From Candidatus Latescibacterota bacterium (lineage in GTDB: Bacteria > Latescibacterota > UBA2968), in assembly GCA_965204375.1 (NCBI GenBank), contig OZ241986.1, positions 4,512,001 through 4,576,000 of the forward strand: a DNA stretch of 64,000 nucleotides, in the 5' to 3' direction. Shown piece after piece: positions 2,871-51,194 of this stretch (its first letter is position 1; each line of letters opens with the position of its first letter). Below the pieces are notes generated by a model. It was given only the letters and a program-made list of their open reading frames with translations. It made no database searches and was not told the origin of the DNA. Position numbers and translations under genes: made by a program.

Positions 2871-2968
2871 AAGAAGTGTGAAGTGAGAAGGTAGAAGTGA
2901 GAAGTCCACCCAACACCACCCCAGATCGGGTGCTTCTTCACCCTTCACACTTCACCCTTCACACCTTC
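2871..2968. repeat. Inverted heptamer arrays (GAAGTGW / WCACTTC-like) around a ~27-bp spacer
   Basis: gaagtgtgaagtgagaaggtagaagtgagaagt ... cttcttcacccttcacacttcacccttcacacc. Confidence 0.85.
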
Positions 2969-8993: not shown

Positions 8994-9036
8994 GAAGGAA
9001 AGTGAGAAGTGTGAGGTGAGAAGTGTGAAGTGAAAG
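8994..9036 (+). repeat. Heptamer array (purine-rich arm) at left border of defence island
   Basis: aagtgag aagtgtg aggtgag aagtgtg aagtgaa. Confidence 0.8.
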
Positions 9037-16015: not shown

Positions 16016-16049
16016 AGTGGGAAGTGGGAAGTAGGAAGTGTGAAATGTG
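16013..16049 (+). repeat. Heptamer array beginning in the hsdM stop codon
   Basis: tgaagtg ggaagtg ggaagta ggaagtg tgaaatg. Confidence 0.8.
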
Positions 16050-16290
16050 CTGCCGCCTGGGATGACCGCCAAATTGTGCAAGAGATACTTGCACAAATCC
16101 CCTGAAATCATTGCTTGATGCGCCATCCCGACGATGCTTTGATGGGTGAAGCGATGTATGAAGGCGAGTAATTCGAGCATGACTGGTTGCCTGCCAAGCC
16201 AACTGTGCAGCAACTCGCTGCACAATTTCCATTGGTCGAATCGCTGTTGACCGTTGAAAAGACAGAGCAGGAGCTAAAGGGCACTGGGGA
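16049..16290 (+). pseudogene. Collapsed remnant of DUF1016/YhcG-like nuclease gene
   Basis: Fragments translate as AAWDDRQIVQEILAQIP, TVQQLAAQFP and SLLTVEKTEQEL, resembling N- and C-terminal YhcG motifs. Confidence 0.55.
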
Positions 16291-16295
16291 GATGC

Positions 16296-16829: not shown

Positions 16830-17001
16830 AAAAGAGCTAACAAAGCCCGACAATGATGAAGAAGGCATGACTGCCGCGCTTATACGAGCCGCCAAACGCG
16901 CGCACCAAATCGCGCATCAGACCGGCACCAAAGTTGTGGTCATGCGTGATGGCAAAGTCGTGGAAATTGATCCAGATCCAAAGATGTACAACGACATTTG
17001 A
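16810..17001 (+). CDS. Small partner protein of zeta-like ATPase (putative antitoxin)
   Basis: 63 aa, overlaps ATPase 3' end; AALIRAAKRAHQIAHQTGTKVVVMRDGKVVEI pattern. Confidence 0.65.
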   Translation: MMKQPSEKELTKPDNDEEGMTAALIRAAKRAHQIAHQTGTKVVVMRDGKVVEIDPDPKMYNDI

Positions 17002-17006
17002 GATTG

Positions 17007-17110
17007 AAGGGCGAGTATGTAAAAGACAATGCCCACTTCAATTCTATCGAATCGTTGTGGGCACTGGTCAAGCGCGTATATGTCGGGATACACCACCACT
17101 GGAGGCGGTC
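17007..17110 (+). mobile_element. IS1595-family transposase fragment
   Basis: Translates GEYVKDNAHFNSIESLWALVKRVYVGIHHHW, matching the IS1595 GEYV..HTN.IE.FW..LKR...G.YH motif. Confidence 0.7.
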
Positions 17111-17120
17111 CCTTGTTTTT

Positions 17121-17459
17121 TTACGTGCCGTTCAAAGTGCCTAAATAGGTCACTATACTGACTATTACACCAATACCGATAAGAATTATCGTTACAAGTT
17201 TAGTCACGAAGTCTCGCCTGTCTCTGGTGTCATCTTTTATTTCATTTTTATACTCTCTAATGGCTTCTTCTTTTGTTTGAATATCTCTGACTGTTTTTTC
17301 TACCTCATCAATTTTATCGCGTATTTTGTCAACTTTATCTTCAAGTCGGCGCAGCCCCTCCATAATCCAATTCAAAGGCCCCAATTTGTCGCCATCATCT
17401 TTGGGCAAGGCATTTGATTCGTTGGGTATTGTGGAATCATTTTCATGATCAGGCATCAT
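17121..17459 (-). CDS. Small coiled-coil protein with C-terminal TM helix
   Basis: Heptad run LEDKVDKIRDKIDEVEK, hydrophobic C-terminus; overlaps upstream ORF; AT-rich. Confidence 0.65.
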   Translation of the reverse strand: MMPDHENDSTIPNESNALPKDDGDKLGPLNWIMEGLRRLEDKVDKIRDKIDEVEKTVRDIQTKEEAIREYKNEIKDDTRDRRDFVTKLVTIILIGIGVIVSIVTYLGTLNGT

Positions 17460-17751
17460 AAACCTCTAACCATTCCCAAAGGCTTTTCTTGGCATAACCA
17501 AAATGGCTACTAACGCGCATAACCACACCAGAGCCTATCTTGGAGTCCTCTTTGCCATATCCGAGTTTATTGCTTAATTCTCGCGCTGTCCCCTCATAGG
17601 TTAAAAAATAGATGTCCGGGGCATGTTCGTCATACACATGAACAGGGGGAAGCAGAGCCGCACTGTCTCGGTTTAATAATTTTTGCACCTCTTCCTTTAA
17701 TGCCAAAGATTCATCTTCGGTAAGGTGCACGGGCACAATAGCATAAAGCAT
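17449..17751 (-). CDS. Hypothetical protein
   Basis: 100 aa, AAGGA RBS, overlaps the 17121-17459 gene. Confidence 0.6.
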   Translation of the reverse strand: MLYAIVPVHLTEDESLALKEEVQKLLNRDSAALLPPVHVYDEHAPDIYFLTYEGTARELSNKLGYGKEDSKIGSGVVMRVSSHFGYAKKSLWEWLEVYDA

Positions 17752-17976
17752 TTTAATATTCCTTTGATTACTTGACTTTATGGCAGTAACTTTTTTGAAA
17801 ATATACGTACGTGAACAGACAAGGACAACCCAAAAGGACCATGTCCACGTACCTTTTTTGTGCTATTTTCTCCTCGTACAGAGCCAGACGTACCCGTTCA
17901 TCTGTACTACTTTCCTCAGATTCATCGTACATCGGTAAATGAATACCAGAGCATATTATACCCTAAGCAAAACCAA

Positions 17977-18195
17977 AGCAAATATCAGGCCAATATCACA
18001 GCATCGCGTGACAAATTGCATGGATAGCGATCAAATACCTTTATTATGCCTTCAATATGCTGTATTGCCCCCTTTTTTTCAACTCGAATTTACGGATCGC
18101 CTGTTTGGCGCAGAACAATCTCTGTATATTTTGAGCGATACAGGGGCGATAATGTGAAAGATATGTACCACTTGCCTATATGTCCGCTACGGTGT
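17977..18195 (+). repeat. ~220-bp diverged dispersed repeat, copy A (copy B 45736-45974)
   Basis: Shared blocks agcaaatatcaggccaat, cagcatcgcgtgacaaattg, atatgctgtattgc, tgtatattttgagcgat, gtgaaagatatgtacc. Confidence 0.85.
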
Positions 18196-18291
18196 AAAAC
18201 GCTCAAATGAGATAGAGTATTTCTGCCCATATATGCAAAGGTGGCACGATTTCGCATGATTCGCTACATTTATTGCATAGGGAGATCGAAA

Positions 18292-18564
18292 ATGAATGAA
18301 AGAAATAGAAATATCGGTCAAGAGATTCTATCTGGCCTACAGGAAATCAAGCGCGGCGAACACGGTCGTATCATTACAGTACCTGATATTGCCCAAACGA
18401 GAGCGAAAGTGGGTCTTTCTCAAACTCAGTTTGCCCAATTGATGGGTGTATCTGTTCGAACGCTGCAAGATTGGGAGCAGGGTCGCCGTCGTCCATCGGG
18501 TGCTGCCCGGACACTATTGATAATCGCAGACAAAAACCCGCAAGCGATATTAGATGTGATGTGA
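18292..18564 (+). CDS. XRE/HTH antitoxin-like regulator (orphan)
   Basis: RAKVGLSQTQFAQLMGVSVRTLQDWEQGRRRPSGAARTLL. Confidence 0.85.
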   Translation: MNERNRNIGQEILSGLQEIKRGEHGRIITVPDIAQTRAKVGLSQTQFAQLMGVSVRTLQDWEQGRRRPSGAARTLLIIADKNPQAILDVM

Positions 18565-18683
18565 GAACCTGTAATCCCTTTGCTGAGTATCTCCGGGAAT
18601 ATTGGGGGACTGTTGAAATTGAGCACCTATGGTAGAAGTGTGAAGCGGTGTATATTGTTGCCTCGTGGAAAAAAGGAGGATAT

Positions 18684-19178
18684 ATGAAAACTCAACAATT
18701 GAAAGTCTGGAGGTGGACATCAACGGGATTTCGAAGAACAGATGGTGCTTCGGTTATCGCAGAAGGGCAGACCACGACTTATGCGACATCGGCGGGGTGG
18801 CGTTTTCAAAACCGATCTGAAATGATTGCAGCAATAAAAGAAGGATTGCCAGTAGCGACATTTGACGCATTAAAAAATGCTATGGGCATTTCTGAACAAG
18901 CTCTGGCCTCTGTGACTAAAATTGCGATACATACACTGACACGTCGAAAAAAAGAAGGACGGTTGCATATTGATGAATCGGAACGACTGCTGCGTATTGG
19001 TCTGCTGTATGATCGGGCTGTAGAGGTCCTGGGAGGACAGGAAGTTGCTCGTCAATGGTTTGCAACGCCATTAACTGCCCTTGGGCGCGTTTCTCCACTG
19101 GATTATGCAGATACCGAACCAGGTGCTCGAGAAGTTGAAGACCTTCTGGGACGCATTGAGTACGGGGTATTTTCATGA
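18684..19178 (+). CDS. Xre/MbcA/ParS-type antitoxin (DUF2384)
   Basis: TLTRRKKEGRL, ESERLLR, WFATPLTALG, GAREVEDLLGRIEYGVFS; AAGGAGG RBS. Confidence 0.88.
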   Translation: MKTQQLKVWRWTSTGFRRTDGASVIAEGQTTTYATSAGWRFQNRSEMIAAIKEGLPVATFDALKNAMGISEQALASVTKIAIHTLTRRKKEGRLHIDESERLLRIGLLYDRAVEVLGGQEVARQWFATPLTALGRVSPLDYADTEPGAREVEDLLGRIEYGVFS

Positions 19179-19345
19179 TGCTGACAGCGTGGTTCAACAG
19201 TGGTGATTCAGCGATCCTTGCTGTCCCCAGCGTTATTGTACCTGTAGAGACAAATTATTTGATCAATCCTCTTCATCCCGATTTTGAAAAAATAAAGATA
19301 GGAGGACCTGAGCAATTTGAATACGATCTGCGTTTAGTGAAATGA
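19175..19345 (+). pseudogene. RES-domain toxin with large in-frame internal deletion (56 aa)
   Basis: ATGA overlap with antitoxin; MMLTAW joined directly to FNSGDSAILAVPSVIVPVETNYLINPLHPDF. Confidence 0.8.
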
Positions 19346-19415
19346 GTGTTTCGAGACATTGATGATCCGGTGGCATTTCAACGAAATCTTCGGACCAATA
19401 AGGTCGGAAACTGCG

Positions 19416-20024
19416 ATGACAGAAACGATAAACAAAACGCGAATATTCACTGTAGGACACTCGACACATGCATTTGAGGATTTCGTCTCCATCCTGAAAC
19501 AACATGGCGTGGATGCCATTGCAGACGTGAGGTCGGTTCCATATAGCCGTTGGCAACCGCAATTCAATCGCGAACACCTAACGGAAGCCCTGAAGACCCG
19601 GGGTATTGCCTATGTTTTCCTCGGCGAGGAACTCGGCGCACGCAGTGACGATCCAAAGTGTTACGAGAACGGCCGGGTGCAGTATCGCGCGCTCGCCGAA
19701 ACCCCGCTGTTTCAATCCGGAATAAAGCGCGTCCGAGACGGGAGCAAGAGCAGGCGCATTGCCTTGATGTGTGCAGAGAAGGATCCCCTGGATTGCCACC
19801 GCACAATTCTCGTCGCTCGCGAATTGGTGGCAAGTGGCGTAGATGTCGCACACATTCTTGAAGATGGATCACAGGAACCACACGATGAGACCCTGAAACG
19901 CCTGTCTGAGCAGTTGCGATTGCCAGCACAGGATCTGTTTCTTACCCCTAATGAATTGGAAGACCGGGCATACGCGGCACAGGAACAGCGCATTGCGTAT
20001 GTTGAGGAGGAGACTACACAATGA
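19416..20024 (+). CDS. DUF488 family protein
   Basis: IFTVGHS, ADVRSVPYSR, YVFLGEELG, ALMCAEKDPLDCHR. Confidence 0.9.
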   Translation: MTETINKTRIFTVGHSTHAFEDFVSILKQHGVDAIADVRSVPYSRWQPQFNREHLTEALKTRGIAYVFLGEELGARSDDPKCYENGRVQYRALAETPLFQSGIKRVRDGSKSRRIALMCAEKDPLDCHRTILVARELVASGVDVAHILEDGSQEPHDETLKRLSEQLRLPAQDLFLTPNELEDRAYAAQEQRIAYVEEETTQ

Positions 20025-20164
20025 AAATTTTCACCATTGGCTTCACCAAAAAAAGCGCAGAGCAATTCTTCAATAGCTTGCAAACAGCGGGCGTCAAGCG
20101 AGTCGTTGATGTGCGGCGTAGCGCGATTTCGTGTAATTCCGTACATTTATCACATAAGGGATGA
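20021..20164 (+). pseudogene. Truncated second DUF488 gene
   Basis: ATGA overlap; MKIFTIGFTKKSAEQFFNSLQTAGVKRVVDVRR then similarity breaks at the 30-bp motif (20118). Confidence 0.75.
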
Positions 20165-20415
20165 CAACCATGAAATTGATTGAGAAAGAAATCATCATTG
20201 CCAAAGACGGCAAACTTCCTACAGACTTTCGCGAGGCATTTGGTCGAAAGGCTCGTGTTGCTATTTATCTTCAGGAAGACCAAAAAGAAAAAACAGAAGG
20301 TGCAGATATCCTATCGGATCTCGATGGCAAAATTCAAGCGTTTCGAGACATTGATGACCCAGTGACGTTTCAACGAAATCTCCGGGCTGAATGGGATCGG
20401 GGTTGGGAGAAATGA
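20161..20415 (+). CDS. Small antitoxin-like protein (orphan)
   Basis: 84 aa ending DPVTFQRNLRAEWDR, like antitoxins that precede PIN toxins; the following ATG opens only 12 codons. Confidence 0.55.
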   Translation: MTTMKLIEKEIIIAKDGKLPTDFREAFGRKARVAIYLQEDQKEKTEGADILSDLDGKIQAFRDIDDPVTFQRNLRAEWDRGWEK

Positions 20416-20520
20416 ACTCTGAAAACTCGCGCCGCTGGTGCGAGAAATAGGTTGGTCGTATAAGAGAACCAACGTAATAAACTTGTAGAAGAAATTTGAG
20501 ATGAGAAGGAGTTGTGATCT

Positions 20521-21573
20521 ATGAGCTGGACGGAACTTCAATTCAAAGATTTCGTGACACTACAAAGAGGTTTTGATTTACCAAAGGCCCGTATGGTGGA
20601 TGGTGTTGTCCCTGTCCTCGGATCGAAATCCATCATTGGCTTTCACAATGAAGCGAAAGTGGAAGCACCCGGAGTAGTCACAGGCAGATCAGGATCATTA
20701 GGTTTGGTTCAGTATTCGGAGCAACCGTTTTGGCCTCATAACACTGCCCTTTGGGTAAAGGATTTCAAAGGAAACAGTCCTCGGTTTGTTTACTATAAGC
20801 TTCAGACCCTCAATCTGGAGAGATTTAATGGCGGTGTATCCGTCCCGACACTAAATCGAAATGTGTTGGACACACTCCCCGTCAAAATTCCTAAACGTAC
20901 CTTACAAGACCGCATCGCTTCCATCCTCTCCACCTACGACAACCTGATCGAAAACAACCGGCGGCGGATTCAATTGCTGGAACAATCAGCGCAGCTACTC
21001 TATAAGGAATGGTTCGTCCACCTCCGCTTCCCCGGACATGAACACGTCACCATAACCGATGGCGTGCCGGAGGGATGGATGAAAAAGCCATTGGGCGAAA
21101 TTGCTCCCCTAAATTATGGAAAGGCACTCAAAAAAGATGATCGAATACCTGGACCGGTTCCCGTCTTTGGTTCAAGTGGGATAATCGGAACACATGAAAA
21201 ATCACTTGTTCCCGGCCCCGCGATCATAGTGGGCAGAAAAGGCAATGTCGGAACCACTTACTGGAGCCAGGACGACTTCTATCCAATCGACACTGTATAT
21301 TTTATCGAAGCCAGGTATTGTTCTATTCACCTGTATCATGCTTTGCTTAACACGCAGTTCATCAATACAGATGTCGCGGTTCCGGGCCTGAACCGGGACT
21401 TTGCACACAGCCGACTGCTACTCGTGCCAGACAACAAAATCCTCATACTATTTGAACAACACGCCACAGAAATTTATGAGCAGATCAATCGCCTGACAAA
21501 ATACAACCAAACACTCACCCAGGCCCGCGACCTGCTCCTACCGCGGTTGATGAATGGGGAGATTTCAGTATGA
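20521..21573 (+). CDS. hsdS: Type I R-M specificity subunit
   Basis: Two TRDs, central QDRIASILSTYDNLIENNRRRIQLLE...LYKEWF, C-terminal RDLLLPRLMNGEI. Confidence 0.95.
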   Translation: MSWTELQFKDFVTLQRGFDLPKARMVDGVVPVLGSKSIIGFHNEAKVEAPGVVTGRSGSLGLVQYSEQPFWPHNTALWVKDFKGNSPRFVYYKLQTLNLERFNGGVSVPTLNRNVLDTLPVKIPKRTLQDRIASILSTYDNLIENNRRRIQLLEQSAQLLYKEWFVHLRFPGHEHVTITDGVPEGWMKKPLGEIAPLNYGKALKKDDRIPGPVPVFGSSGIIGTHEKSLVPGPAIIVGRKGNVGTTYWSQDDFYPIDTVYFIEARYCSIHLYHALLNTQFINTDVAVPGLNRDFAHSRLLLVPDNKILILFEQHATEIYEQINRLTKYNQTLTQARDLLLPRLMNGEISV

Positions 21574-24500
21574 ATCAATCTGAACTTCGTCAGGAACTCG
21601 ACCGTCTATGTGAACTTCCGCACGAGACAGAATGGCTCGAGTTCAAAGAAGCTCAAAATCAGTATGACTTCGATAAGTTGGGCAAGTATTTCTCTGCCCT
21701 ATCCAACGAGGCCAACTTAAAAAAGCAAGCGTGTGGCTGGTTGATATTGGGCGTAAAAGATGATCGTTCGGTTTGCGGCAGTCAGTGGTTCCACGAAAAT
21801 CCAGCCAAACTTGACAAGTTGAAAGAGGGAGTTTCCAATCATACAACCGGCAACCTCACATTTGATGAGATTTATGTGCTCAATCACCCAGGTGGCCGCG
21901 TTGTCATGTTCAAGATTCCGCCCGCCTTACAAGGCATTCCAACCGCCTGGAAAGGACACTGGTATGGACGCAATAGCGAGTCCCTTGGTGCGCTCAGTTT
22001 GCGAGAAATAGAGACAATTCGATTGCAGTCTTCTGACGAGCATCAAACTAATTCAGACTGGAATCAGCACGAATACGCTTCTGAACTGGCGATTGCCAAC
22101 CTTCTTGGCGCATGGAATGAGCTAAACGAAGCCGATTTAGAAATTGTGTGTCAACTTGTCAATGATGAGGATTACGCAAAGTGGATCCCCAAACTGAGGG
22201 AAATGTTACAACAAGCGATAAGCCCTGTGACGTTCATGAATGGAAGATGGCAGGTCATTGATCGAAAAGGAATGTGGCAGGCATTAGGTGGACGTGTTTT
22301 TGATGATACATTGGATGCCCTGAAACAGTGCGCGGTCACGGTATTGTCCGAGCGCGATCCTCAGTTTGACTTACCCTCCGATGAACGTTATGCCGCCAAT
22401 ATCTATAAAAAGGTATTGAAGTACTCAACCGGGCTTCGGAAAGGATTAGCTGAAACGCTGGTACTGCTCGGCACTAATCCCGATGCTCTGACACATTTCT
22501 CACCACGACATCAGGGTTGGAAACCAAAAAATACGGCAGGTCGTGCAGTTCGCGAAATTCTCGAGAATGCGGATTGGGTATTGTGGGGTAGCCTCAATGA
22601 TTTTCTCCCTGTACTGGCAGAAACAGACCCTCGTGAATTTTTGGATGCTGTAGAAAATGCATTGGACAAATCCCCTTGCCCGTTTGAAGAACTGTTTTCA
22701 CAGGAGGGCAATCCTCCATTGGGGAGCAATTACCTCACTGGCCTACTGTGGGCATTGGAAACCCTCGCTTGGGATACTGAACATCTCGTCCGCGTGTGCG
22801 TAATTCTCGGTGAGCTTGCGGCGCGTGATCCCGGCGGTAACTCGTCGAACCGCCCTGCCAATTCACTGGCAGAAATTATACTCCCCTGGCATCCGCAGAC
22901 TACCGCACCCATAAAAAAGCGGGAAGTTGCCGTAAAAACGCTGATAAATGAGGTCCCGGATGTGGCCTGGAATCTATTGATCAGTCTTTTGCCAAATCAG
23001 CATCAGATGTCCTTTGGAACTCGCAAACCTAAGTGGCGAAATACCATTCCCGATAATTGGAAAGAGCGCGTGACTAAAGTGGATTACTGGAAGCAAGTTG
23101 ACTCTTATGCTGAAATGGCGATTGCTATGGCAAGTAATGACATTGATAAATTAACCGAGTTGGTAGGCGACCTCAATCGCCTGCCAAAACCTTCTCTGGA
23201 CAAACTTATCGAGCATCTGGCATCAGAAGAGATATGCGGAAAACCTGAAGATCAGCGTCTAAAACTCTGGACTCAACTAACTCAGCTTGCCTCAAAACAC
23301 AGACGTTTTTCTGACGCAGAATGGGCTTTAAGCGATAAGACCGTTTCCAAAATCGAAGATGTTGCTGCAAAACTCGCTCCTGAAAATCCATTCCATCTTC
23401 ATCGCAGATTATTTAGCCACAACGATTTGGATCTCTATGAAGGAACTTGGGGAGAGCCTCAACAAGCGCAAAAACTTGATCAACACCGTCAAAAACTCGA
23501 TCAACGCCGTCAGCAAGCGATAAAAGAGATTTTAGCTGGTGGTGGAATGGATATAGTATTTCAATTCGCCGAAAGTGTTGAGTCACCCTGGGATGTTGGC
23601 CGTTCTCTAGGTACTATTGCACAGGCGGAAACTGACAAACACATCCTTCCTGCATTGCTGGAAACAGAGAATACCAAACTCGCGCTACTCACAAGTGCTT
23701 ATGTCAGTTGTCGCCAAAATGTCAATGGATGGGAATGGGTTGATGGCTTTGACACCTCGAACTGGTCAGCCGCACAAATAGGTCAATTCCTATCCTATCT
23801 ACCCTTTACCAAAGAGACCTGGCGTCGCGCAACAGATTGGCTCGGCAAATCCGAAAAGGAGTACTGGCGCAAAACCAGTGCAAATCCCTACGAGACAGAG
23901 AGCGACCTCGGCTTTGCCATTGACAAATTGATTGAGTATGATAGACCCCATGCTGCTATCGCATGTCTGAGTAAAATGATACATAGTAACCAGCCATTGG
24001 ACAAAACCCGAAGTGTAAAAGCTCTTATGGATGCCATTTCTTCTTCAGAATCTCCCCAAGAAATGGATGCACATAACATCATTGAAATCATAGAGGCTTT
24101 ACAGGACGATCCAAACACCGACCCAAATGATCTCTTTCAAATTGAATGGGCCTACCTGCGCTTATTAAATCACCACACATCACCGAAGACATTGGAAAAC
24201 CGCCTATCTTCTAATCCAGAATTTTTCTGTGAAGTCATACGCATTATCTATCGGTCAAAAAAGGAAACGGAACCCGCAAAAGAATTTAGCGAACAGGATA
24301 AAGCCATTGCTGAAAATGCATACAAACTTCTTAATCAATGGAAGACACCTCCAGGAATGCAATCGGATGATCAATTTCTAGCGGAAAAATTTACGGAATG
24401 GCTTAACAAAACAAAAGAAGCGTGTGATGAATCCGGGCATCTTGAAGTCGCCCTTCTGAATATAGGAAAAGTTCTCATTCATGCGCCACTTGATCCAGAC

Positions 24501-24893
24501 GGGCTGTGGATAAATCAAACAGTCGCATCTGCGCTCAATGCAAAAGACGCGGCGAAAATGCGGGATGGTTTCTGGACAGGAATTTTCAACTCTCGCGGAG
24601 TTCAAACAGTTGACCCAACGGGAAAATCCGAGCGAGAGCTTGCCGAAAAATACAAACAAATGGCCGGAGAAGTTGAAAATGAAGGCTATCACCGCTTTGC
24701 TGTTACACTTAGGGAATTAGCAAAAGAATATGAGCGTGAAGCGGAAATATATATTGCTGAGCATGACGCAGAAATGAGAATGCTTCAGAACCAAAAACTA
24801 ATTGAACGGGAGAGTGCCCGAAGATTGGCACAACTCGGCGGAAGCGAGCCACAACTACAAGCTGTCCCGCGCCGTCGGAGTGATCCCGAATGA
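21570..24893 (+). CDS. 1107-aa protein: N-terminal AlbA_2, long helical region, C-terminal VapB-like tail
   Basis: ETEWLEFKEA...GKYFSALSN...LILGVKD (AlbA_2); GLLWALETLAW/NRP helical region; ends LIERESARRLAQLGGSEPQLQAVPRRR. Confidence 0.8.
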   Translation: MNQSELRQELDRLCELPHETEWLEFKEAQNQYDFDKLGKYFSALSNEANLKKQACGWLILGVKDDRSVCGSQWFHENPAKLDKLKEGVSNHTTGNLTFDEIYVLNHPGGRVVMFKIPPALQGIPTAWKGHWYGRNSESLGALSLREIETIRLQSSDEHQTNSDWNQHEYASELAIANLLGAWNELNEADLEIVCQLVNDEDYAKWIPKLREMLQQAISPVTFMNGRWQVIDRKGMWQALGGRVFDDTLDALKQCAVTVLSERDPQFDLPSDERYAANIYKKVLKYSTGLRKGLAETLVLLGTNPDALTHFSPRHQGWKPKNTAGRAVREILENADWVLWGSLNDFLPVLAETDPREFLDAVENALDKSPCPFEELFSQEGNPPLGSNYLTGLLWALETLAWDTEHLVRVCVILGELAARDPGGNSSNRPANSLAEIILPWHPQTTAPIKKREVAVKTLINEVPDVAWNLLISLLPNQHQMSFGTRKPKWRNTIPDNWKERVTKVDYWKQVDSYAEMAIAMASNDIDKLTELVGDLNRLPKPSLDKLIEHLASEEICGKPEDQRLKLWTQLTQLASKHRRFSDAEWALSDKTVSKIEDVAAKLAPENPFHLHRRLFSHNDLDLYEGTWGEPQQAQKLDQHRQKLDQRRQQAIKEILAGGGMDIVFQFAESVESPWDVGRSLGTIAQAETDKHILPALLETENTKLALLTSAYVSCRQNVNGWEWVDGFDTSNWSAAQIGQFLSYLPFTKETWRRATDWLGKSEKEYWRKTSANPYETESDLGFAIDKLIEYDRPHAAIACLSKMIHSNQPLDKTRSVKALMDAISSSESPQEMDAHNIIEIIEALQDDPNTDPNDLFQIEWAYLRLLNHHTSPKTLENRLSSNPEFFCEVIRIIYRSKKETEPAKEFSEQDKAIAENAYKLLNQWKTPPGMQSDDQFLAEKFTEWLNKTKEACDESGHLEVALLNIGKVLIHAPLDPDGLWINQTVASALNAKDAAKMRDGFWTGIFNSRGVQTVDPTGKSERELAEKYKQMAGEVENEGYHRFAVTLRELAKEYEREAEIYIAEHDAEMRMLQNQKLIERESARRLAQLGGSEPQLQAVPRRRSDPE

Positions 24894-25279
24894 TTTTGGT
24901 TGATACCTCAGTCTGGATTAATCATCTCAATCCTAAAGACCCAAGATTTAGTATTCAACATAGTGAACGACTTAAAACCCTGTTAAATGATAACCAGGTA
25001 TTGGGTCATTCTATGGTAATTGGAGAACTGGCCTGCGGCAATTTGAAGGACCGCCAAACAGTGTTGACAGACCTCGAGAACTTGCCCAAGGCATCGGTTG
25101 CCACCGATGACCATGTGCTCTCCTATATTGAGCAAAAACAACTGATGGGTCGTGGTATCGGCTACGTTGATTTTCATTTATTGGCCGCCACAGAACTGAC
25201 TCGGTCAACCGAACTTTGGGCACTCGATGGACGGCTTATGGATGTGGCTACTGAACTAAATCTCGCTTACCAAATTTAA
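24890..25279 (+). CDS. vapC: VapC PIN-domain toxin
   Basis: MILVDTSVWI, GELACG, GRGIGYVD, WALDGRL; acidic residues intact; ATGA overlap with upstream gene. Confidence 0.9.
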   Translation: MILVDTSVWINHLNPKDPRFSIQHSERLKTLLNDNQVLGHSMVIGELACGNLKDRQTVLTDLENLPKASVATDDHVLSYIEQKQLMGRGIGYVDFHLLAATELTRSTELWALDGRLMDVATELNLAYQI

Positions 25280-25364
25280 GGACGAACCTCGGGCTGCACA
25301 GTCTCTTGCTTACGCTTGATAAACATGATAAGAAGGTTTGAAACAATATGTTCGGAGTTGGCGC

Positions 25365-26267
25365 ATGTCTGACGAGTACCCAATTGTTACAGTAGAACCA
25401 GAATGGAGGAGGAGGAGTGACCCCGAGGAAATGGGTACGAGAAAGAAATTCTGGTATAGCAAGCCCAAGCCCAATGACGAAACAAATTGGCTCTTCAAAC
25501 ATCCTCGACCAAACACAGGAGAACACTGGGCTGAGAAGATTGCCGCCGAGGTTGCCTCTGTGATCGGAATTAGACACGCGAATGTAGAACTGGCGAAGTT
25601 TCAAGATGAGCGCGGATCGGTGACAGAATCGTTTGCCCTCGGGGACGGGACGCTATACCATGGCAACCAAATGTTGGAAGTGACCATTGAAGGTTACAAG
25701 CTCCAGAGAAAGTTCCACCAGTCGAGTCATACTTTGGCTAATATCTGGAAGGTAATGGACTCTGTTTTTGTCAAGTCTGAAGATGCACAAGAAGAGAAAC
25801 TCATCATCGCTGAGTACCTGGTTTTGGATGCATTAATTGGCAACATAGATCGCCACCACGAGAATTGGGGCGTACTTCGATGGTGGGTAGATGACAGTTG
25901 GAGGGGTTTCGTAGCACCGTCTTATGACCACGCATCCTCGCTGGGACGAGAACTTTTGGATGCAAGACGTAATATGCTACTAACAGAGAATCGCGTAGGA
26001 GACTATGTGGAAAAAGGACGCGGTGCCATTTACTGGTCAGAGGACGAGCGATACGGCCCCAGTCCACTGGAATTGGTTCGAAGTGCAGCGGACATCTATC
26101 CAGAACTTTTTCATCCAGCGAGCCTGAAACTCGCAAAGATAGATGAAGAAGTTTTTAGTCAAATAGTCAATCGGATTCCTTCCGATTGGATGACTTCTTC
26201 AGCACGAATGTTCGCGATTGAGTTCATGCGCTATACTTATGAAAAATTACGGGAGATTTTTCGATGA
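25365..26267 (+). CDS. HipA-like Ser/Thr kinase
   Basis: MGTRKKFW, WLFK, GEHWAEK, DALIGNIDRHHENWG, APSYDHASSLG. Confidence 0.87.
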   Translation: MSDEYPIVTVEPEWRRRSDPEEMGTRKKFWYSKPKPNDETNWLFKHPRPNTGEHWAEKIAAEVASVIGIRHANVELAKFQDERGSVTESFALGDGTLYHGNQMLEVTIEGYKLQRKFHQSSHTLANIWKVMDSVFVKSEDAQEEKLIIAEYLVLDALIGNIDRHHENWGVLRWWVDDSWRGFVAPSYDHASSLGRELLDARRNMLLTENRVGDYVEKGRGAIYWSEDERYGPSPLELVRSAADIYPELFHPASLKLAKIDEEVFSQIVNRIPSDWMTSSARMFAIEFMRYTYEKLREIFR

Positions 26268-27016
26268 ATACAAAGACTTTATTCCTGGCGTGGCAGGATA
26301 AAAGAGGAGAAGTGAGCCGTCCTTGGTTTCCAGTGGGCAGGCTGGATGTCGAGCCGTCGTTTTATCGCTTTCGTTATATCCGCGGTGCGAAACGAGCCGA
26401 AAAGGAGCAAGGATTTCTTCCATTGCTCGATTTCCCCATTTTAACCTCAGAGTACCAATCCTCAGAACTCTTTCCGCTATTCAGAAATCGGATTATTGCG
26501 CCGGGGAGGCCGGATCGTTCGGACTATCTGAACAACCTCGGCCTTCCTGAGAATGCAGATCCGGTGGAGATCCTATCGGTAAGCGGTGGCTATCGGGTAA
26601 CTGATGCTTATGAGGTGTTTCCGAAGCTCGAGATGGATACTGACGGAAGTTTTATTTGTCGCTTCTTTCTCCATGGCTACCGTCATGTTAGTGAAACCGC
26701 TCTAAATAGAATTGAAGACTTAAAACCGGAAGAACAACTTTATTTAACACTGGAACTTACCAATCCAGCGACCGGCTTGGCGGTGCAAATCCAGACAACA
26801 GACTACCATATGATTGGTTGGACGCCGCGTTATCTCGTATCCGACCTCGCGAGGGCAATGGCCGATTGGCCAGACAAATACACGGCACAGGTGGTACAGG
26901 TCAATCCCCAATCAGCACCGATGAAACAGCGCGTTTTGATTGAGATGCGTGGCTACTGGGACCCACAGCATGAACCGATGAAAGGCAAGGATTTTCAACC
27001 TCTGGTTGGTGATTGA
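26264..27016 (+). CDS. HipA-N/HipS-like + HIRAN domain protein
   Basis: LFLAWQD...WFPVGRL...FRY...LFPLFRNRI, then FFLHGYRH, ELTNP, IGWTPRYL; ATGA overlap with kinase. Confidence 0.78.
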   Translation: MNTKTLFLAWQDKRGEVSRPWFPVGRLDVEPSFYRFRYIRGAKRAEKEQGFLPLLDFPILTSEYQSSELFPLFRNRIIAPGRPDRSDYLNNLGLPENADPVEILSVSGGYRVTDAYEVFPKLEMDTDGSFICRFFLHGYRHVSETALNRIEDLKPEEQLYLTLELTNPATGLAVQIQTTDYHMIGWTPRYLVSDLARAMADWPDKYTAQVVQVNPQSAPMKQRVLIEMRGYWDPQHEPMKGKDFQPLVGD

Positions 27017-27045
27017 TCGTTTATTTATTACAAGTATTGATTTTA

Positions 27046-27077
27046 CTGGATCGCGGCTAAAACCCTACCGCGATGAC
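27046..27077 (-). repeat. REP-like hairpin, copy 3 (inverted)
   Basis: ctggatcgcggctaaaaccctaccgcgatgac. Confidence 0.8.
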
Positions 27078-27129
27078 AGACCATAGTCAAGGCCAGAGTG
27101 AGAGCCAGAGTCACAGCCAGAGTCGCAAA

Positions 27130-30100
27130 ATGAACCCAACCCCCTACACCGAAGACACCCTCGTTCAACAGACCACAGCCGAGTACCTCGAACAGCAACT
27201 CGGCTGGGAATCCGTCTATGCCTACAACAGCGAGGACTTTGGGCCGGACAGTCTGCTCGGTCGCGCCTCTGACCGCGAAGTCGTACTCACGCGCTATCTA
27301 CTCACCGCGCTGCGAACGCTGAACCCCGGCCTGCCCGAAGACGCCTACAACGACGCAATCCGACAAATCACATCCACCACTGCTTCACAGAGCATCGTCG
27401 CAACCAACCGCGAAAAGTACGATTTCATCCGCAACGGCGTACCCATCAAATTTCGCAACGCCAATGGCGAATGGGTGCAGGAACGCCTCCGAATCTTCGA
27501 TTTTGAAACCCCGGGAAACAACCACTTCCTCTGCGTACGCGAACTATGGATAAAAGGCGACCTCTACCGCAGACGAGCAGACATCATCGGCTTTGTCAAC
27601 GGCCTGCCCCTCCTCTTCATCGAATGCAAAAACATCCACCGGGACCTGAAAGCCGCGTACAACGGCAACTACTCGGACTACCGCGACACCATCCCCCACA
27701 TCTTCCACCACAACGCCATCGTCCTGTTTGGCAACGGCGAAAAAGCAAAACTCGGCTCCATCACCAGCGAATGGGACCACTTCCACGAATGGAAACGCCT
27801 ATCCGAAGAAGAACCCGGCGTCGTCGATATGGAAACCCTCCTCAAAGGCGTCTGCAACAAACGCGACTTCATGGACATCATAGAAAACTTCATCCTCTTC
27901 GACGACACATCGGGTGAAACAAAGAAAATCCTCGCCCGCAACCACCAGTTCCTCGGCGTAAACCGCGCAATTGAAGCCGTGCGCGACCGCAAAGTACGCC
28001 AGGGCAAACTCGGCGTCTTCTGGCACACACAGGGCGCTGGCAAAAGCTACTCCATGGTACTCTTCACCCGCAAAGTACACCGCAAACTCGGCGGCAACTT
28101 CACCTTCCTCGTCCTCACAGACCGCACAGACCTCGACACGCAAATCTACAAAACCTTCGCTGGCTGCGGCGTCGTAGATCACGACCGAGACCCCTGCCGC
28201 GCAGCAGACGGGCCACACCTGAACCAGCTATTGACCGAACACAAATCGCACATCTTCTCCCTCATCCAGAAATTCAACCAGGAAGACATAGATCCCAAAA
28301 AAGGCTACACCCAGCGCGACGACATCATCGTCATCACCGACGAAGCGCACCGCACCCAATACGGCAAGTTAGCAGATAATCTGCGCGTCGCCCTGCCCAA
28401 CGCAGCCTACATCGGCTTCACCGGCACACCCCTGTTCAAAGACGACCAGATCACGCGCCGCGTCTTCGGCGAATACGTCTCCACCTACGACTTCCAGCGG
28501 GCAGTAGAAGACAAAGCCACACTACCCCTCTACTACGACGCGCGCGGCGACAAACTGGGCGTAGCCATTGATAATTTAAACGAACGCATCGCCGAAAAAT
28601 TGGAAGAAGCCGAAATCAGCGACATCGACGAGGAACAGCACCTCGAACGAGAACTCAAACGCGCCTACCACATCATCACCGCAGGCAAACGCCTCGACCA
28701 ACTGGCGCGGGACTTCACGCGACACTACTCAGCCGCCTGGGAAACCGGCAAAGCCATGCTGGTATGCATCGACAAAATAACCTGTGTGCGAATGCACAGA
28801 TTGATTGAATTCTACTGGCAAGAACACATCGGAAAACTGGAAACAAGGCTATCGCGAATAACGGACGAAGAGGAGAAAACAGACCTTCAGCGGAAGATCG
28901 AATGGATGCGCGAGACCCGCGCAGCAGTCGTAATCAGCGAAGAACAGGGCGAAATCGAAAAATTCAACAAATGGGAACTGGACATCCTCCCGCACCGCAA
29001 ACTCATCAAAGAAGGCATAGACTTGCCCGAAACCATGAGAAACAAACCGCAGTATCGCAACAAGCAACGCATGGAACTGGACGAAGCCTTCAAAGACGAA
29101 GAACACCCATTCCGCATCGCCATAGTCTGCGCCATGTGGCTAACGGGTTTCGATGTCCCGTGCCTATCAACACTCTACCTCGACAAACCACTCAAAGCAC
29201 ACACCCTCATGCAAGCCATTGCCCGCGCCAACCGCGTGAACGAAAACAAAAACAACGGCCTGATCGTAGATTACTGCGGCGTCCTCGTACACCTGCGCCA
29301 GGCACTCGCAACCTTCGCTGGCACGCAACCGGATGGAGATAACGCACCGACCGACCCCGCAAAACCCGAAGAAGAACTCCTATCAGACCTCGCCGAAGCC
29401 ATCGCCCTATTGCGAGACTTCCTCGACAAACGCAACGCACCACTGGATGACATCATTGAAAAAACGGGCTTCCTCCGCAATGCGGCTATCGTAGCCTGCA
29501 AAGAAGCCGTCAACGAAAACGACGAAACCCGCAAACGCTTCGAAGTCATGTGCCGCGAAGTATTCAAAAAGTACAAAGCCTGCGTCAACGTGCCAAACGT
29601 CAACATCCATCGCGAAGATCGCGACGCCATTGACATCGTGTACAAAAGCCTCCAGCAAGACCGTGTTCAGGCTGACATCTCAGAAATCATAATGGAATTA
29701 CAGCGGGTAGTAGATGCGGCCATTGAACCGAGGCTCAGTAATGTGGCTGAAAATCCGCATCCTGATGAAGATCGACGTCCTTACGACATCAGCCAGATAG
29801 ACTTCGAGCGTCTGAAGCGAGAATTCGCGCGTATCCAGGAAAAAAACACCACCGTTCAGAACCTCAGACAAGCAGTAGAACAAAAATTGCAACGACTATT
29901 GAAGCAAAACCCATTACGCACGGACTTTCAGCACCACTACGAAGAAATCGTCGCAGCGTACAACCGCGAAAAGGACCAGATAACAATAGAGCGCACCTTC
30001 GAAGCATTGCTCAAACTGGTGCAGGAATTGGATGAAGAAGAAAACCGGGCTGTTCGTGAGGGACTCGACGAAGAATCTCTCGCAATCTTCGACCTCTTAA

Positions 30101-30390
30101 AAAAACCCAACCTGAACGCGGGCGAAATCGCACAAATCAAAAAAGTGGCCGTCAGCCTGCTCAAAAAACTAAAAGTTAGCAAACTGCGCGTTCACCAATG
30201 GTGCGAAAAAGAAGCGACCCGGGACGCCGTGCGGACATCCATCTATGACTTTCTCTTCAGCGACGAAACCGGCCTCCCTCACAAATACACAGAAAAGGAC
30301 ATAAAAACAAAAACCGAAGACGTCTTCCGCCACATCTACCGAGCCTACCCCAAATTACCATCGCCATATTACGACAATGCTGCCGCTTGA
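27130..30390 (+). CDS. hsdR: Type I R-M restriction subunit
   Basis: RADIIGFVNGLPLLFIECK nuclease, WHTQGAGKS, DRTDLDTQI, DEAHRTQ, GFTGTP, MWLTGFDVP, QAIARANR. Confidence 0.96.
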   Translation: MNPTPYTEDTLVQQTTAEYLEQQLGWESVYAYNSEDFGPDSLLGRASDREVVLTRYLLTALRTLNPGLPEDAYNDAIRQITSTTASQSIVATNREKYDFIRNGVPIKFRNANGEWVQERLRIFDFETPGNNHFLCVRELWIKGDLYRRRADIIGFVNGLPLLFIECKNIHRDLKAAYNGNYSDYRDTIPHIFHHNAIVLFGNGEKAKLGSITSEWDHFHEWKRLSEEEPGVVDMETLLKGVCNKRDFMDIIENFILFDDTSGETKKILARNHQFLGVNRAIEAVRDRKVRQGKLGVFWHTQGAGKSYSMVLFTRKVHRKLGGNFTFLVLTDRTDLDTQIYKTFAGCGVVDHDRDPCRAADGPHLNQLLTEHKSHIFSLIQKFNQEDIDPKKGYTQRDDIIVITDEAHRTQYGKLADNLRVALPNAAYIGFTGTPLFKDDQITRRVFGEYVSTYDFQRAVEDKATLPLYYDARGDKLGVAIDNLNERIAEKLEEAEISDIDEEQHLERELKRAYHIITAGKRLDQLARDFTRHYSAAWETGKAMLVCIDKITCVRMHRLIEFYWQEHIGKLETRLSRITDEEEKTDLQRKIEWMRETRAAVVISEEQGEIEKFNKWELDILPHRKLIKEGIDLPETMRNKPQYRNKQRMELDEAFKDEEHPFRIAIVCAMWLTGFDVPCLSTLYLDKPLKAHTLMQAIARANRVNENKNNGLIVDYCGVLVHLRQALATFAGTQPDGDNAPTDPAKPEEELLSDLAEAIALLRDFLDKRNAPLDDIIEKTGFLRNAAIVACKEAVNENDETRKRFEVMCREVFKKYKACVNVPNVNIHREDRDAIDIVYKSLQQDRVQADISEIIMELQRVVDAAIEPRLSNVAENPHPDEDRRPYDISQIDFERLKREFARIQEKNTTVQNLRQAVEQKLQRLLKQNPLRTDFQHHYEEIVAAYNREKDQITIERTFEALLKLVQELDEEENRAVREGLDEESLAIFDLLKKPNLNAGEIAQIKKVAVSLLKKLKVSKLRVHQWCEKEATRDAVRTSIYDFLFSDETGLPHKYTEKDIKTKTEDVFRHIYRAYPKLPSPYYDNAAA

Positions 30391-30441
30391 AGTGTGAAGG
30401 TAGAAGTTAGAAGTTAGAAAAAGGAAAGAGAAAGGAAGAAT
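30388..30441 (+). repeat. Heptamer array (left arm) starting in the hsdR stop codon
   Basis: tgaagtg tgaaggt agaagtt agaagtt agaaaaa ggaaaga, degenerating toward the ORF. Confidence 0.8.
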
Positions 30442-30798
30442 TTGAAATCGGATCTGCCAGAACGATCATTTGAGTTTGCAAAACGCATCGTAAAACTATG
30501 CCAATACCTGGATAAAAAACCAGGCGTTTCTCGAACGCTGGGGAACCAGCTATTGCGTTCGGGCACCTCAATTGGCGCAAATGTCGAAGAAGGGCAGGCC
30601 GCACAAAGCCAAGCAGACTTCATCAACAAATACAGCATCGCCTGTAAAGAAGCACGCGAAACACACTACTGGCTACGCATCCTAACCGCAACCAACCTGC
30701 TGCCATCAGACCGAATGGCTAAAATAGAACAAGAATGCAATGAACTCATCGCCATACTGACCAGCATCATAAAAAAAATGAAAAGCAAACAACCCTGA
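30442..30798 (+). CDS. Four-helix-bundle protein (23S rRNA IVS protein / Avd-like fold)
   Basis: RSFEFA, QLLRSGTSIGANVEEG, SQADFINK, KEARETHYWL motifs; TTG start. Confidence 0.92.
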   Translation: MKSDLPERSFEFAKRIVKLCQYLDKKPGVSRTLGNQLLRSGTSIGANVEEGQAAQSQADFINKYSIACKEARETHYWLRILTATNLLPSDRMAKIEQECNELIAILTSIIKKMKSKQP

Positions 30799-30940
30799 CT
30801 TTTCACTTCACCCTTTCACACTTCACACTTCCTACTTCACACTTCTCACTTCACACTTCCTACTTCACACTTCTCACTTCACACTTCTCACTTCACCCTT
30901 TCACACTTCACACTTCTCACTTCTCACTTCCCACTTCACC
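30798..30940 (-). repeat. ~20-unit heptamer array (ACTTCAC/ACTTCTC/ACTTCCT), inverted right arm
   Basis: Continuous 7-bp periodicity from the four-helix-bundle stop up to the next ATG. Confidence 0.95.
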
Positions 30941-32356
30941 ATGCCCAAAACCACCAACCGAAAAACCATCATCTCGTGGATGATGTATGACTTTGCGAAC
31001 TCGTCCTTTGCCAACAACGTCACCACATTTATCTACGCGGCGTTCTTCACCAAAGTCATTGCTGAAAATGAAATCATCGGCACGGCTTTATGGTCTCGCG
31101 GCGTCGGCATCATCATGCTCGTCGTCGCACTGCTATCGCCACCCCTCGGCGCGCTATCTGACCAGGGCGGCTATCGCAAACGCTTTTTAATATTCTTCAC
31201 ATTCCTCGCCGTCATCTTCACCGCACTCCTCTATTTCCCGCAAAAAGGGCAGGCCATCTATGCAATGACCCTGTACATCATCGCCTGTATCTGTTTTGAA
31301 ATGGGCATCGTATTTTACAACGCCTTCTTGCCCGACATTGCCCCGCCCGAACGCATCGGCCGCATATCGGGACAGGCCTGGGGCGTGGGATATTTCGGGG
31401 GCCTGCTCTCAATGGCCGTCCTCATGGTCGGCTTTGTATCCGCAGAAACCCCGTGGTTTGGCCTCACCAAAGAAACCCATGAACACATCCGGGCGACAAA
31501 CATCGGCGTTGCAATCTGGTTTGCCATCTTCAGTCTCCCAGCCCTCTTCTATTTACCCCAAACACCTGCGCGACAAACCGGCGACAAACTCAGTTTGGCT
31601 ACATCCTACCGACGCATCCTGCAAACCTTCCGCGAACTCCAGCGCTACCGGGAAATCTTCAAACTCCTGCTCGCGCGCTTGGTCTATAACGACGGCCTGA
31701 TCACCGTCTTTGCTTTCGGCGGCATTTACGCGGCAGGCACATTCGGATTCACATTTGAAGAAGTCCTCTTCTTCGGCATCATCGTCAACATCGCAGCAGG
31801 CATCGGCGCATGGTGTTTTGGGTACCTGGACGACCGTCTCGGCGGCAAACTCACCATCCAGATCACCCTCGTCGGATTCGTCATCGCAGCAATCATCGCC
31901 GTCCTCCCTCCTGAACTCTTCCGGATCTGGATTGAATTTGCATTATGGGATACAGGCCGTTTGATCGGCCTTTTTGTCGATCCAAACCAATCCGCCAGCC
32001 TATCGGCCATCCAATCATTCATTTTCGACAAAAAATTCCAATTCTGGATCGCGGGCATTCTCGTCGGCTTATTCGCCGGTCCCAACCAATCGGCCAGCCG
32101 CTCCCTCATGGGACGTTTTGTCCCCCCAAACAAAGAAACCGAATTTTACGGCTTCTACGCCTTCTCGGGAAAAGCCACCGCATTTCTCGGCCCCCTCCTC
32201 ATGGGCATCATCACACAAGCCTTTGGATCCCAGCGCTTCGGCATGGCAACCGTGGGCCTGTTCTTCATCATAGGCGGTCTCCTCTTGCGCACCGTTGACG
32301 AACAAAAAGGCATCCGCATGGCGCGTGAAAAAACGCCAACGGAAACAGACGCCTGA
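30941..32356 (+). CDS. MFS transporter (UMF1/ATG22-like)
   Basis: WMMYDFANS, FYNAFLPDIA, GRISG, YNDG, QSASRS, EFYGFY; ~12 TM. Confidence 0.9.
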   Translation: MPKTTNRKTIISWMMYDFANSSFANNVTTFIYAAFFTKVIAENEIIGTALWSRGVGIIMLVVALLSPPLGALSDQGGYRKRFLIFFTFLAVIFTALLYFPQKGQAIYAMTLYIIACICFEMGIVFYNAFLPDIAPPERIGRISGQAWGVGYFGGLLSMAVLMVGFVSAETPWFGLTKETHEHIRATNIGVAIWFAIFSLPALFYLPQTPARQTGDKLSLATSYRRILQTFRELQRYREIFKLLLARLVYNDGLITVFAFGGIYAAGTFGFTFEEVLFFGIIVNIAAGIGAWCFGYLDDRLGGKLTIQITLVGFVIAAIIAVLPPELFRIWIEFALWDTGRLIGLFVDPNQSASLSAIQSFIFDKKFQFWIAGILVGLFAGPNQSASRSLMGRFVPPNKETEFYGFYAFSGKATAFLGPLLMGIITQAFGSQRFGMATVGLFFIIGGLLLRTVDEQKGIRMAREKTPTETDA

Positions 32357-51156: not shown

Positions 51157-51194
51157 TTTTTCATCTGCGTCTATCTGCGTTCATCTGCGGATCA
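51157..51194 (-). repeat. ACGCAGAT-type short tandem repeat (core-less member of the ~60-bp family)
   Basis: tcatctgcgt ctatctgcgt tcatctgcgg atca. Confidence 0.75.

Follow-up and report, generated by a model that had tools for sequence, protein, structure and literature searches.

What kind of genetic unit fills the junction between a stop codon and a start codon completely, and holds a small gene between inverted arrays of a heptamer? The question is raised by a cassette of ~550 bp in a stretch of 64,000 nucleotides from Candidatus Latescibacterota bacterium (assembly GCA_965204375.1, contig OZ241986.1, positions 4,512,001 to 4,576,000, forward strand), hereafter called the window. The cassette consists of a purine (R) arm, a short leader, an open reading frame (ORF) of the four-helix-bundle family PF05635, and a pyrimidine (Y) arm, with no spacer to the stop codon of hsdR or to the next start codon. 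We consider it probable that the locus is a PF05635 cassette of the type known from intervening sequences (IVS) of rRNA, located outside rRNA and equipped with tandem-heptamer arms. Its features and immediate neighbours are, in window coordinates:

27073..30390, + strand: hsdR, type I restriction R subunit (Pfam SWI2_SNF2, HSDR_N, T1RH-like_C)
30389..30419, + strand: R arm of 4 units, GAAGTGT GAAGGTA GAAGTTA GAAGTTA GAA (sequence, Tandem Repeats Finder)
30420..30441, + strand: purine-rich leader with Shine-Dalgarno-like AAGGAAG right before TTG (sequence)
30442..30798, + strand: four-helix-bundle protein gene, 118 aa, TTG start, pI 9.4 (PF05635/TIGR02436)
~30798..30939, + strand: Y arm of ~19-20 CACTTCW units (Tandem Repeats Finder)
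30941..32356, + strand: MFS / ATG22-like transporter gene, ATG at 30941 (Pfam)

The original prediction had placed the ORF between a purine arm and a complementary arm of ~20 units that reaches the MFS start codon and leaves no Shine-Dalgarno sequence. A reading of the sequence and Tandem Repeats Finder both confirm this arrangement, and the observation is correct in every detail. The hsdR stop codon TGA (30388-30390) shares bases with the first unit of the R arm. At the opposite end, the Y array terminates in ...CACTTCACC immediately 5' of the MFS gene, 1 nt short of the ATG, and a purine-rich Shine-Dalgarno-like stretch is absent from the 14 nt 5' of this ATG. Tandem Repeats Finder reports the Y arm at 30804-30939 (period 7, 19.1 copies, 80% matches, score 170) and the R arm at 30396-30419 (3.4 copies).

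The ORF matches PF05635 with an E-value of 9.6e-26 (90.5 bits, curated cut-off 33.8) and TIGR02436 with an E-value of 6.5e-32 (110 bits, cut-off 24). The nearest solved relative of the 118-aa protein is PDB 2RLD (E 1.3e-24), an entry with five chains. Homologues begin with M-K-S-D-(L/I)-P-E at the position that matches the TTG start. The conserved motif of PF05635 is quoted as GxxRxxxSxxxNxxE in the text of PMC3936711; the protein keeps R39-x3-S43-x3-N47-x2-E50, with Q36 in place of the first-position G, and Q36, R39, N47, E50 and E73 are (nearly) invariant across 13 relatives. The basic character of the protein is common among its relatives (pI >8 in 63 of 80). It is encoded by the single PF05635 gene in the whole 6.34-Mb genome, which consists of one contig. 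A scan of the window at Rfam gathering thresholds gives 0 matches.

In a computed RNA fold of positions 30370-30960, the R arm pairs with the proximal Y units and encloses the ORF. The fold has a minimum free energy of -127.5 kcal/mol and is not equalled by any of 100 shuffled sequences (z -3.05). The complementarity of the arms is imperfect: every unit pairs through GAAGU and ACUUC, and its two variable positions often stay unpaired.

Heptamer arms across the protein subfamily

The architecture recurs in related genes. A subfamily alignment search of species-representative genomes yields 597 relatives, of which the best 80 loci were analysed with flanks of up to 10 kb. These loci span Desulfobacterota, Gammaproteobacteria, Acidobacteriota, Chloroflexota, Planctomycetota, Cyanobacteria, Bacteroidota, Bacillota and others. 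The density of period-7 arrays is 41.1 per 10 kb at less than 100 bp from the gene (65 arrays) and decreases to 3.35 at 100-300 bp (10 arrays), 1.29 at 300-1000 bp (13 arrays), 0.93 at 1-3 kb (24 arrays) and 0.70 at 3-10 kb (50 arrays), such that the density next to the gene is ~59 times that at 3-10 kb. For periods 5, 6 and 8-12, no enrichment near the gene is found in the 80 loci (0-4 arrays per distance bin).

Arrays are located upstream of the gene in 48 and downstream in 57 of the 80 loci, and on both sides in 39. The nearest two arrays are reverse-complementary at 6 or more of 7 positions in 35 of these 39 loci (25 of them perfectly), as compared to 9.6% of cross-locus pairs. On the sense strand, the upstream unit has at least 4 purines in 38 of 48 cases and the downstream unit at most 3 purines in 51 of 57 cases, a polarity relative to the gene that argues for a putative role of the arms in the transcript or in one DNA strand. 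The upstream array stops a few bases 5' of the start codon, and the downstream array starts at or in the stop codon. The proposal that homologues carry flanking inverted 7-mer arrays is thus strongly borne out for this subfamily by enrichment and complementarity alike.

The arm words are diverse between loci and include AAGTTTG, AAGGGTG, AAAAGGT, AATTCGT, AATTGAG, AACGCAG, AAATGCT and others. The same word is common to 80% of locus pairs with a protein identity of 80% or more (n=5), 40% of pairs at 70-80% (n=25), 25% at 60-70% (n=154) and ~5% below. The closest homologues (69-76% identity; records of Desulfosarcina, Thiohalocapsa and Terriglobia, three other phyla) possess GAAGTTT arms that resemble the GAAGTTA units of the R arm in the window. 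Arrays more than 1 kb away from the gene match the local arm word at 7/7 positions in 15 of 89 cases, as compared to an expected 1%.

In two loci (L026 and L028 in genomes G033 and G038), the 3' end of the four-helix-bundle gene is partly duplicated in tandem, and an AATTCTT array follows each duplicate. This suggests recombination or slippage between arrays.

Insertion contexts and empty sites

In 43 of the 65 loci where orientation is callable on both sides, the two neighbouring genes point the same way as the cassette gene. A Pfam scan of the neighbours covers 101 of 134 proteins at 59 loci. Cassettes are found within housekeeping operons, namely between NuoE and NuoF, E1alpha and E1beta, hemY and hemB (protoporphyrinogen oxidase and ALAD), and two ABC permeases; further cassettes adjoin Der, SelB, DnaX, AspRS and similar genes. 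Defence contexts account for at least 15 of the 59 loci, 8 of them with restriction-modification (R-M) genes, plus Cas1, Cas2, DndE, AbiEii, NACHT, RhuM and WYL. These contexts fit a dedicated partner of type I enzymes less well than an insertable unit that favours variable islands. In the congener G001 (L013:1100-3290), a PF05635 cassette with GGCCACT/AGTGRCC arms interrupts a DNA methyltransferase gene. The N-terminal and C-terminal parts correspond to residues 386-858 and 867-972, respectively, of an intact 973-aa homologue (L035:10435-13356); only ~8 codons are missing, and the cassette arm provides a new stop.

The site 5' of the MFS gene was compared across 20 congeners. In four distant congeners a lactonase-like gene directly adjoins the MFS gene, with neither an island nor arrays, and the remaining congeners harbor variable islands. 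At this site the R arm is present only in the genome of the window (G000), in G002, which has an orthologous gene, and in G009, where a deletion joins the R arm and the initial ~30 nt of the gene to the MFS gene. The Y array has 19-20 units in G000 and 8 in G002. The same hsdR is found without the four-helix-bundle gene in G013, G012, G018 and G014; G018 has a PF05635 match with an internal stop. A contig of the RNA-library run X21 joins hsdR to the MFS gene via 137 other letters and represents a gene-free allele. The site is therefore polymorphic for the insertion, as the original prediction implies, with R arm and gene in two genomes, a remnant in a third, and other congeners and the X21 contig without the gene.

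A second series is provided by genus g6. Here the site is empty in 5 genomes, without gene and without arrays, and 9 genomes have either the gene or internally deleted remnants, with both AATTCTT-type arms present in 9 of 9; this comparison of filled and empty sites leaves out G032 (L184). The purine arm rewrites the final codons of the upstream gene. AATTCNN arrays are found in exactly those 9 of the 15 g6 genomes, almost solely at the cassette site. The gene decays by internal deletion, and arm-remnant-arm hairpins are left behind.

In the window, the positions from 11.8 to 30.8 kb form a variable defence island, with hsdR as its final large gene and the four-helix-bundle gene as its final gene. 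The island contains a PLD nuclease, hsdM (13943-16015), hsdS (20521-21573), hsdR, DUF488 and a PIN ORF, as well as a zeta-toxin-like ORF, toxin-antitoxin/HTH pairs and a 1107-aa Schlafen/AlbA_2 protein. The type I R-M operon (13943-30390) is stretched across 16 kb by intruding genes: zeta-toxin-like and MqsA/Xre antitoxin-like ORFs, DUF488, the 1107-aa Schlafen/AlbA_2 protein and the PIN ORF. A HipA_C-like ORF (25338-26267) is followed by a HIRAN ORF (26264-27016), both located between hsdS and hsdR, and the latter matches the PADLOC candidate system protein PDC-M03B (E 6e-80). At the N-terminus of hsdR (27076-27124), a 12-nt repeat ACAGCCAGAGTC encodes an S/Q-rich stretch; CAGCCAGAGTC units that resemble it are found in the non-coding spacer 5' of the MFS gene in G020.

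The arm word in the genome and in the genus

At a strict threshold, the genome contains 116 period-7 tracts, 91 of them GAAG-type. Chains of at least 3 GAAG-type units number 97 on the + strand and 103 on the - strand, as compared to 3 for a permuted word. Merging results in 199 arrays, 136 of which lie for the most part outside crude ORF calls, and the arrays are concentrated at 4.0-4.6 Mb of the genome. A purine array is followed by a pyrimidine array within 500 bp in 55 cases; the opposite order never occurs nearer than 743 bp. The resulting hairpins typically have a spacer of 24-52 nt with a conserved ~30-nt core, for example CCACCCAACACCACCCCAGAGCGGGTGCTTC. We count 64 copies with nhmmer and 65 with a covariance model (R1), which was built since simple IUPAC patterns of the core are too insensitive. 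The sole array pair with a 403-nt spacer is the pair that encloses the four-helix-bundle gene, where the gene stands in for the core. Other inverted array pairs in G000 with loops of 1-3 kb contain ordinary genes, not cargo. The orientation of hairpins relative to flanking genes is random (15/15/15/12). RNAalifold on a MAFFT alignment of 43 hairpins gives no consensus structure, the alignment being gappy; single hairpins fold with the outer arm stem present and an inconsistent inner stem.

Within the window, this family comprises the following members besides the cassette:

~2872..2968, + strand: gene-less hairpin of purine arm, conserved core CCACCCAACACCACCCCAGATCGGGTG and pyrimidine arm, just 5' of a sulfatase gene
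9000..9033, + strand: solo purine array of the same heptamer family (repeat finding)
16014..~16048, + strand: solo purine array starting inside the hsdM stop codon (TGAAGTGG...) (repeat finding, sequence)

The arms of the hairpin extend over 2872-2905, with the complement at 2936-2968. The original prediction had listed related arms at 2871, 8994 and 16013. They are real, as one complete hairpin and two solo arrays; they are not satellites of the gene but members of a genome-wide family that is also present in gene-free congeners. In 8 congeners the site of the sulfatase hairpin (2873-2968) is empty. G016, G009 and G011 have hairpins there that are built of other words (GAGACGT / AAGAGGT), and G012, G010 and G015 have other repeats. 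The site is thus polymorphic for the insertion, as would be expected of a MITE; no target duplication, the second mark of such an element beside its terminal inverted repeats, is evident there, and the empty sites already have one unit similar to the Y arm (CTCTCAC).

The core-bearing hairpin is specific to the genus. The covariance model detects it in 18 of 20 genomes of the genus and in 0 of 20 outside. Hairpin numbers range from 0 to 65 across the genus, with 65 in G000, 33 in G012, 30 in G010, 29 in G009, 16 in G015, 14 each in G016 and G005, and 6 in G002; since 131 candidates were scored per genome, these counts may be lower bounds. Matches to the GAAG pattern number 595 in G000 versus 0-150 elsewhere and bear no relation to the presence of the gene. 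The hairpin core has no similarity to the interior of the cassette (296 of 1000 shuffles score equally well), hence the hairpins are not recognisable as deletion derivatives of the cassette.

Other repeats were noted as well. A family with a 12-nt unit (AACCGATCAAGT / ACCGACCAAGTA) is located at 10020-10056 and 11584-11618 of the window and also adjoins the MFS gene in G008, G020 and G006 (L116, L126, L127). The repeat TTTTATC.GTGTT.ATCTGTGTTCATCTGTGGTTGC is present at two intergenic sites in G012/G013 (the hsdR-MFS spacer in L112 and L124, and the sulfatase site in L138), and related CATCTGCGTC tandem units are found at 51162-51189 of the window and beside two hairpins in G000. A palindromic element (…CTGGATCGCGGC…GCCGCGATGAC…) at 9035-9090 and 9225-9245 of the window, and in L113, L115, L117, L120 and L123, is recurrent in intergenic regions of the genus, often next to heptamer arrays.

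Explanations and known systems

The interpretation as an IVS-like element is partly supported: it is right on architecture and generality, and its mechanism is a proposal. According to this proposal, the arms would pair in the transcript and loop out the ORF, as in ORF-bearing 23S rRNA intervening sequences cut by RNase III, and cutting of the stem would uncouple the cassette from the operon in which it sits. The protein, which is basic and putatively ring-forming by homology, would recognise its own heptamer arms (as RNA or DNA), a recognition that may serve autoregulation and/or the upkeep or copying of the arms, and the unit would move horizontally along with its arms. The GAAGTGW hairpin family may either descend from the arms of such a cassette or have supplied homology for the arrival of the cassette.

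Several findings weigh against this reading. The 80 loci are the best matches of the subfamily, and such relatives are not independent; 16 of them have no array on either side at the threshold used, several of these with short flanks. Among 30 loci from 40 relatives of mixed PF05635 subfamilies, arrays are found upstream in 10, downstream in 17 and on both sides in 9, of which 2 are inverted and 5 direct. Since the pattern is much weaker in this sample, the clean design belongs to the subfamily and is not established for the whole Pfam family. No 23S rRNA gene is found at or next to any examined cassette locus, and the 23S gene of the genome itself (C1:5412338-5415368) is far from the window. 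In at least 8 gene-free congeners, a CACTTCW array of 2-6 units lies directly against the MFS ATG; the whole cassette therefore need not have arrived as one. With respect to pairing, the complementarity of the arms is only 86%, and a test for G-U wobble pairs, which would point to a stem at the RNA level, gives no excess on the sense strand (44 vs 35, p 0.37). This leaves room for a stem that acts in DNA, or for an inversion that simply reflects the origin of the arms. An RNA-library contig of 693 nt (~95% identical) reaches from the end of hsdR through the arm and the gene into the first part of the array, and demonstrates neither transcription nor cleavage or processing; the public run data consist of assembled contigs, from which read starts, ends and depth are not usable. 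Hairpins are also numerous (14-30) in four congeners without any PF05635 match (G010, G015, G016 and G005). Given these numbers and the few hairpins in G002, a strict dependence of hairpins on a resident gene is unsupported; since repeated loss of the gene is documented by the G009 remnant and the internal stop in G018, a past dependence is possible.

Two 'joints', 30420>30900 and 30419>30815, were considered as candidate excision products and rejected: the core-like letters between them belong to other hairpins of the family that were mapped onto the arms.

The relation of gene and hairpins is also what a REPIN-RAYT-like system would have to explain. In REPIN-RAYT systems, a single-copy gene for a Y1/HUH (IS200-like) transposase has inverted short-repeat flanks, and the repeat is dispersed as intergenic hairpin doublets. 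Applied to the window, the four-helix-bundle gene would encode the trans factor by which the dispersed hairpins are made, kept or moved, and would sit between two copies of the substrate, an explanation we hold to be possible, if doubtful. The likeness is evident: the gene is present once, inverted copies of a hairpin repeat found throughout the genome lie on either side of it, and 64-65 hairpins and ~199 arrays with the arm word face this one gene. No other genome of the genus has as high a load as G000 (65 hairpins versus 0-33, and the most pattern matches), hairpin insertions are polymorphic between species, the family is confined to the genus, the word follows the protein across phyla, and distant arrays share the local arm word more often than expected. 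However, hairpins persist in plenty in gene-free congeners while G002 has only 6 despite an orthologous gene, such that co-occurrence of repeat and gene across genomes fails; the g6 word is nearly confined to the cassette site, and the hairpin core is dissimilar to the cassette interior. In contrast to a Y1/HUH transposase, the 118-aa four-helix bundle matches only PF05635 models and has no known nuclease or transposase fold, and its repeats are tandem heptamer arrays. A mere coincidence, with an ordinary small gene between two members of a genome-wide repeat unrelated to it, would draw on the same abundance: ~199 arrays that are dense at 4.0-4.6 Mb, a Y array at the MFS site in gene-free congeners, and other genes of the genome bracketed by arrays at 1-3 kb. 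The period-7 enrichment over 80 loci from many phyla and the complementarity within 35 of 39 loci already contradict this idea. The R arm, never seen apart from the gene or a remnant of it, and the comparison of filled and empty g6 sites also speak against it; we regard coincidence as very improbable.

Two further explanations assign the arrays a regulatory role. According to one, the gene is an accessory of the type I R-M system or the defence island, e.g. a regulator or an anti-restriction safeguard, and the arrays are regulatory sites. The gene indeed lies directly 3' of hsdR in an island with hsdM, hsdS, toxin-antitoxin pairs and the PDC-M03B candidate, the homologous loci that abut R-M genes (8/59) and defence genes (≥15/59) point the same way, and PF05635 genes have been noted within cas loci (PMC3936711). 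Yet the majority of homologous loci are in housekeeping operons (NADH dehydrogenase, haem synthesis, Der, SelB, DnaX, ABC permeases), the PADLOC models give zero matches to the four-helix-bundle protein, and four congeners have the same hsdR without the gene, which makes this explanation quite improbable. According to the other, the arrays mainly serve the translation or transcript stability of the genes next to them, a role that has been suggested for TAACTGA repeats at start codons, and the protein regulates the arrays. In favour, the Y array abuts the MFS ATG in place of a Shine-Dalgarno sequence, the downstream arm often ends a few bases from the next start codon, and heptamers just 5' of start codons without canonical ribosome-binding sites have been described (MacGregor 2015, PMC4679880). 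The unbiased orientation of hairpins relative to flanking genes and the persistence of arrays in genomes without the protein are difficult to reconcile with it, and we consider this explanation improbable.

The reading as an IVS-type cassette is backed by a published parallel. The IVS of Coxiella (Warrier et al. 2016, PMC4990558) is described as a selfish element of 428 nt within helix 45. It contains an S23p ORF, its termini form a 28-bp stem that RNase III cuts, and 2-3 tandem heptamers (GACAGAT), the number of which differs by strain, precede the start codon; Xanthomonas S23p is cited in the same text as a homopentameric ring. The cassette shares with the ORF-bearing 23S IVS of Coxiella burnetii and Leptospira (PMC4990558) an S23p/PF05635 ORF in the loop and copy-variable tandem heptamers just 5' of the ORF. 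Those IVS have terminal inverted repeats that form a stem around a ~0.4-kb insert, to which the complementary arms found here correspond, and are viewed as horizontally acquired selfish elements. In contrast to them, the cassette is located between the hsdR stop and the MFS start rather than in a 23S rRNA helix, its arms are tandem heptamer arrays (4 and ~20 units) instead of a 28-bp unique stem, and its arm word is common to dozens of gene-less hairpins in the genome. RNase III excision is a feature of those IVS and would be a prediction for the cassette.

Dispersed heptamer repeats are familiar from cyanobacteria as STRR sequences. In Xanthomonas, ~186 GGGAATC repeats with 70-75 convergent pairs have been reported (Rehm et al. 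2015, PMC4692102), and GGGGAYT heptamer repeats in Nostoc (PMC4692102); TAACTGA repeats adjoin start codons in Beggiatoaceae, Cyanobacteria and Bacteroidetes (MacGregor 2015, PMC4679880). Like these repeats, the arrays described here are intergenic tandem 7-nt units, often in close convergent pairs capable of hairpin formation, often abut start codons, and vary in length between related genomes. Unlike them, one member of the family holds a PF05635 gene in its loop, and this gene family is armed across phyla. In the text of PMC4692102 and PMC4679880, the terms 'intervening' and 'helix bundle' occur 0 times each and the IVS/four-helix-bundle protein family is not mentioned. PF05635 also resembles Avd, the accessory protein of diversity-generating retroelements (DGRs; PMC10053308), in that both have a related four-helix-bundle fold and are small and basic; like Avd, the protein of the window would act with nucleic acid. 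A Pfam scan of selected ORFs between 11826 and 33773 finds no reverse-transcriptase family, with no search for a pair of template and variable repeats beyond that. A literature search returns no paper linking the PF05635 family with heptamer arrays beyond the Coxiella IVS, with supplements and subscription journals outside its coverage.

The PF05635/TIGR02436 family is very large and includes solved structures; to our knowledge, no function outside DGRs is established for it. Likewise, we know of no account of the origin of ORF-bearing rRNA intervening sequences or of their means of moving, nor of any description of the repeatedly reported bacterial heptamer repeats together with a partner protein. 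The package of a gene in a heptamer stem, which recurs across phyla with a word that follows the protein, unites these three subjects and opens testable questions on binding specificity, RNase III processing and effects on neighbouring genes. To this the window adds a genome in which the arm word has proliferated as genus-specific gene-less hairpins, as well as two natural series of filled, empty and remnant sites and a congener with a cassette-split DNA methylase gene. A more speculative extension, which we put forward tentatively and with low confidence, is that four-helix-bundle proteins of the IVS/Avd family recognise tandem heptamers in a sequence-specific manner. With their arms they would form a novel type of selfish protein-repeat system, which would have seeded the dispersed heptamer hairpins of Xanthomonas, cyanobacteria, Beggiatoaceae and the genus considered here. 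If true, such a system would explain together how rRNA intervening sequences arose, what PF05635 proteins do and why heptamer repeats are in excess in bacteria.

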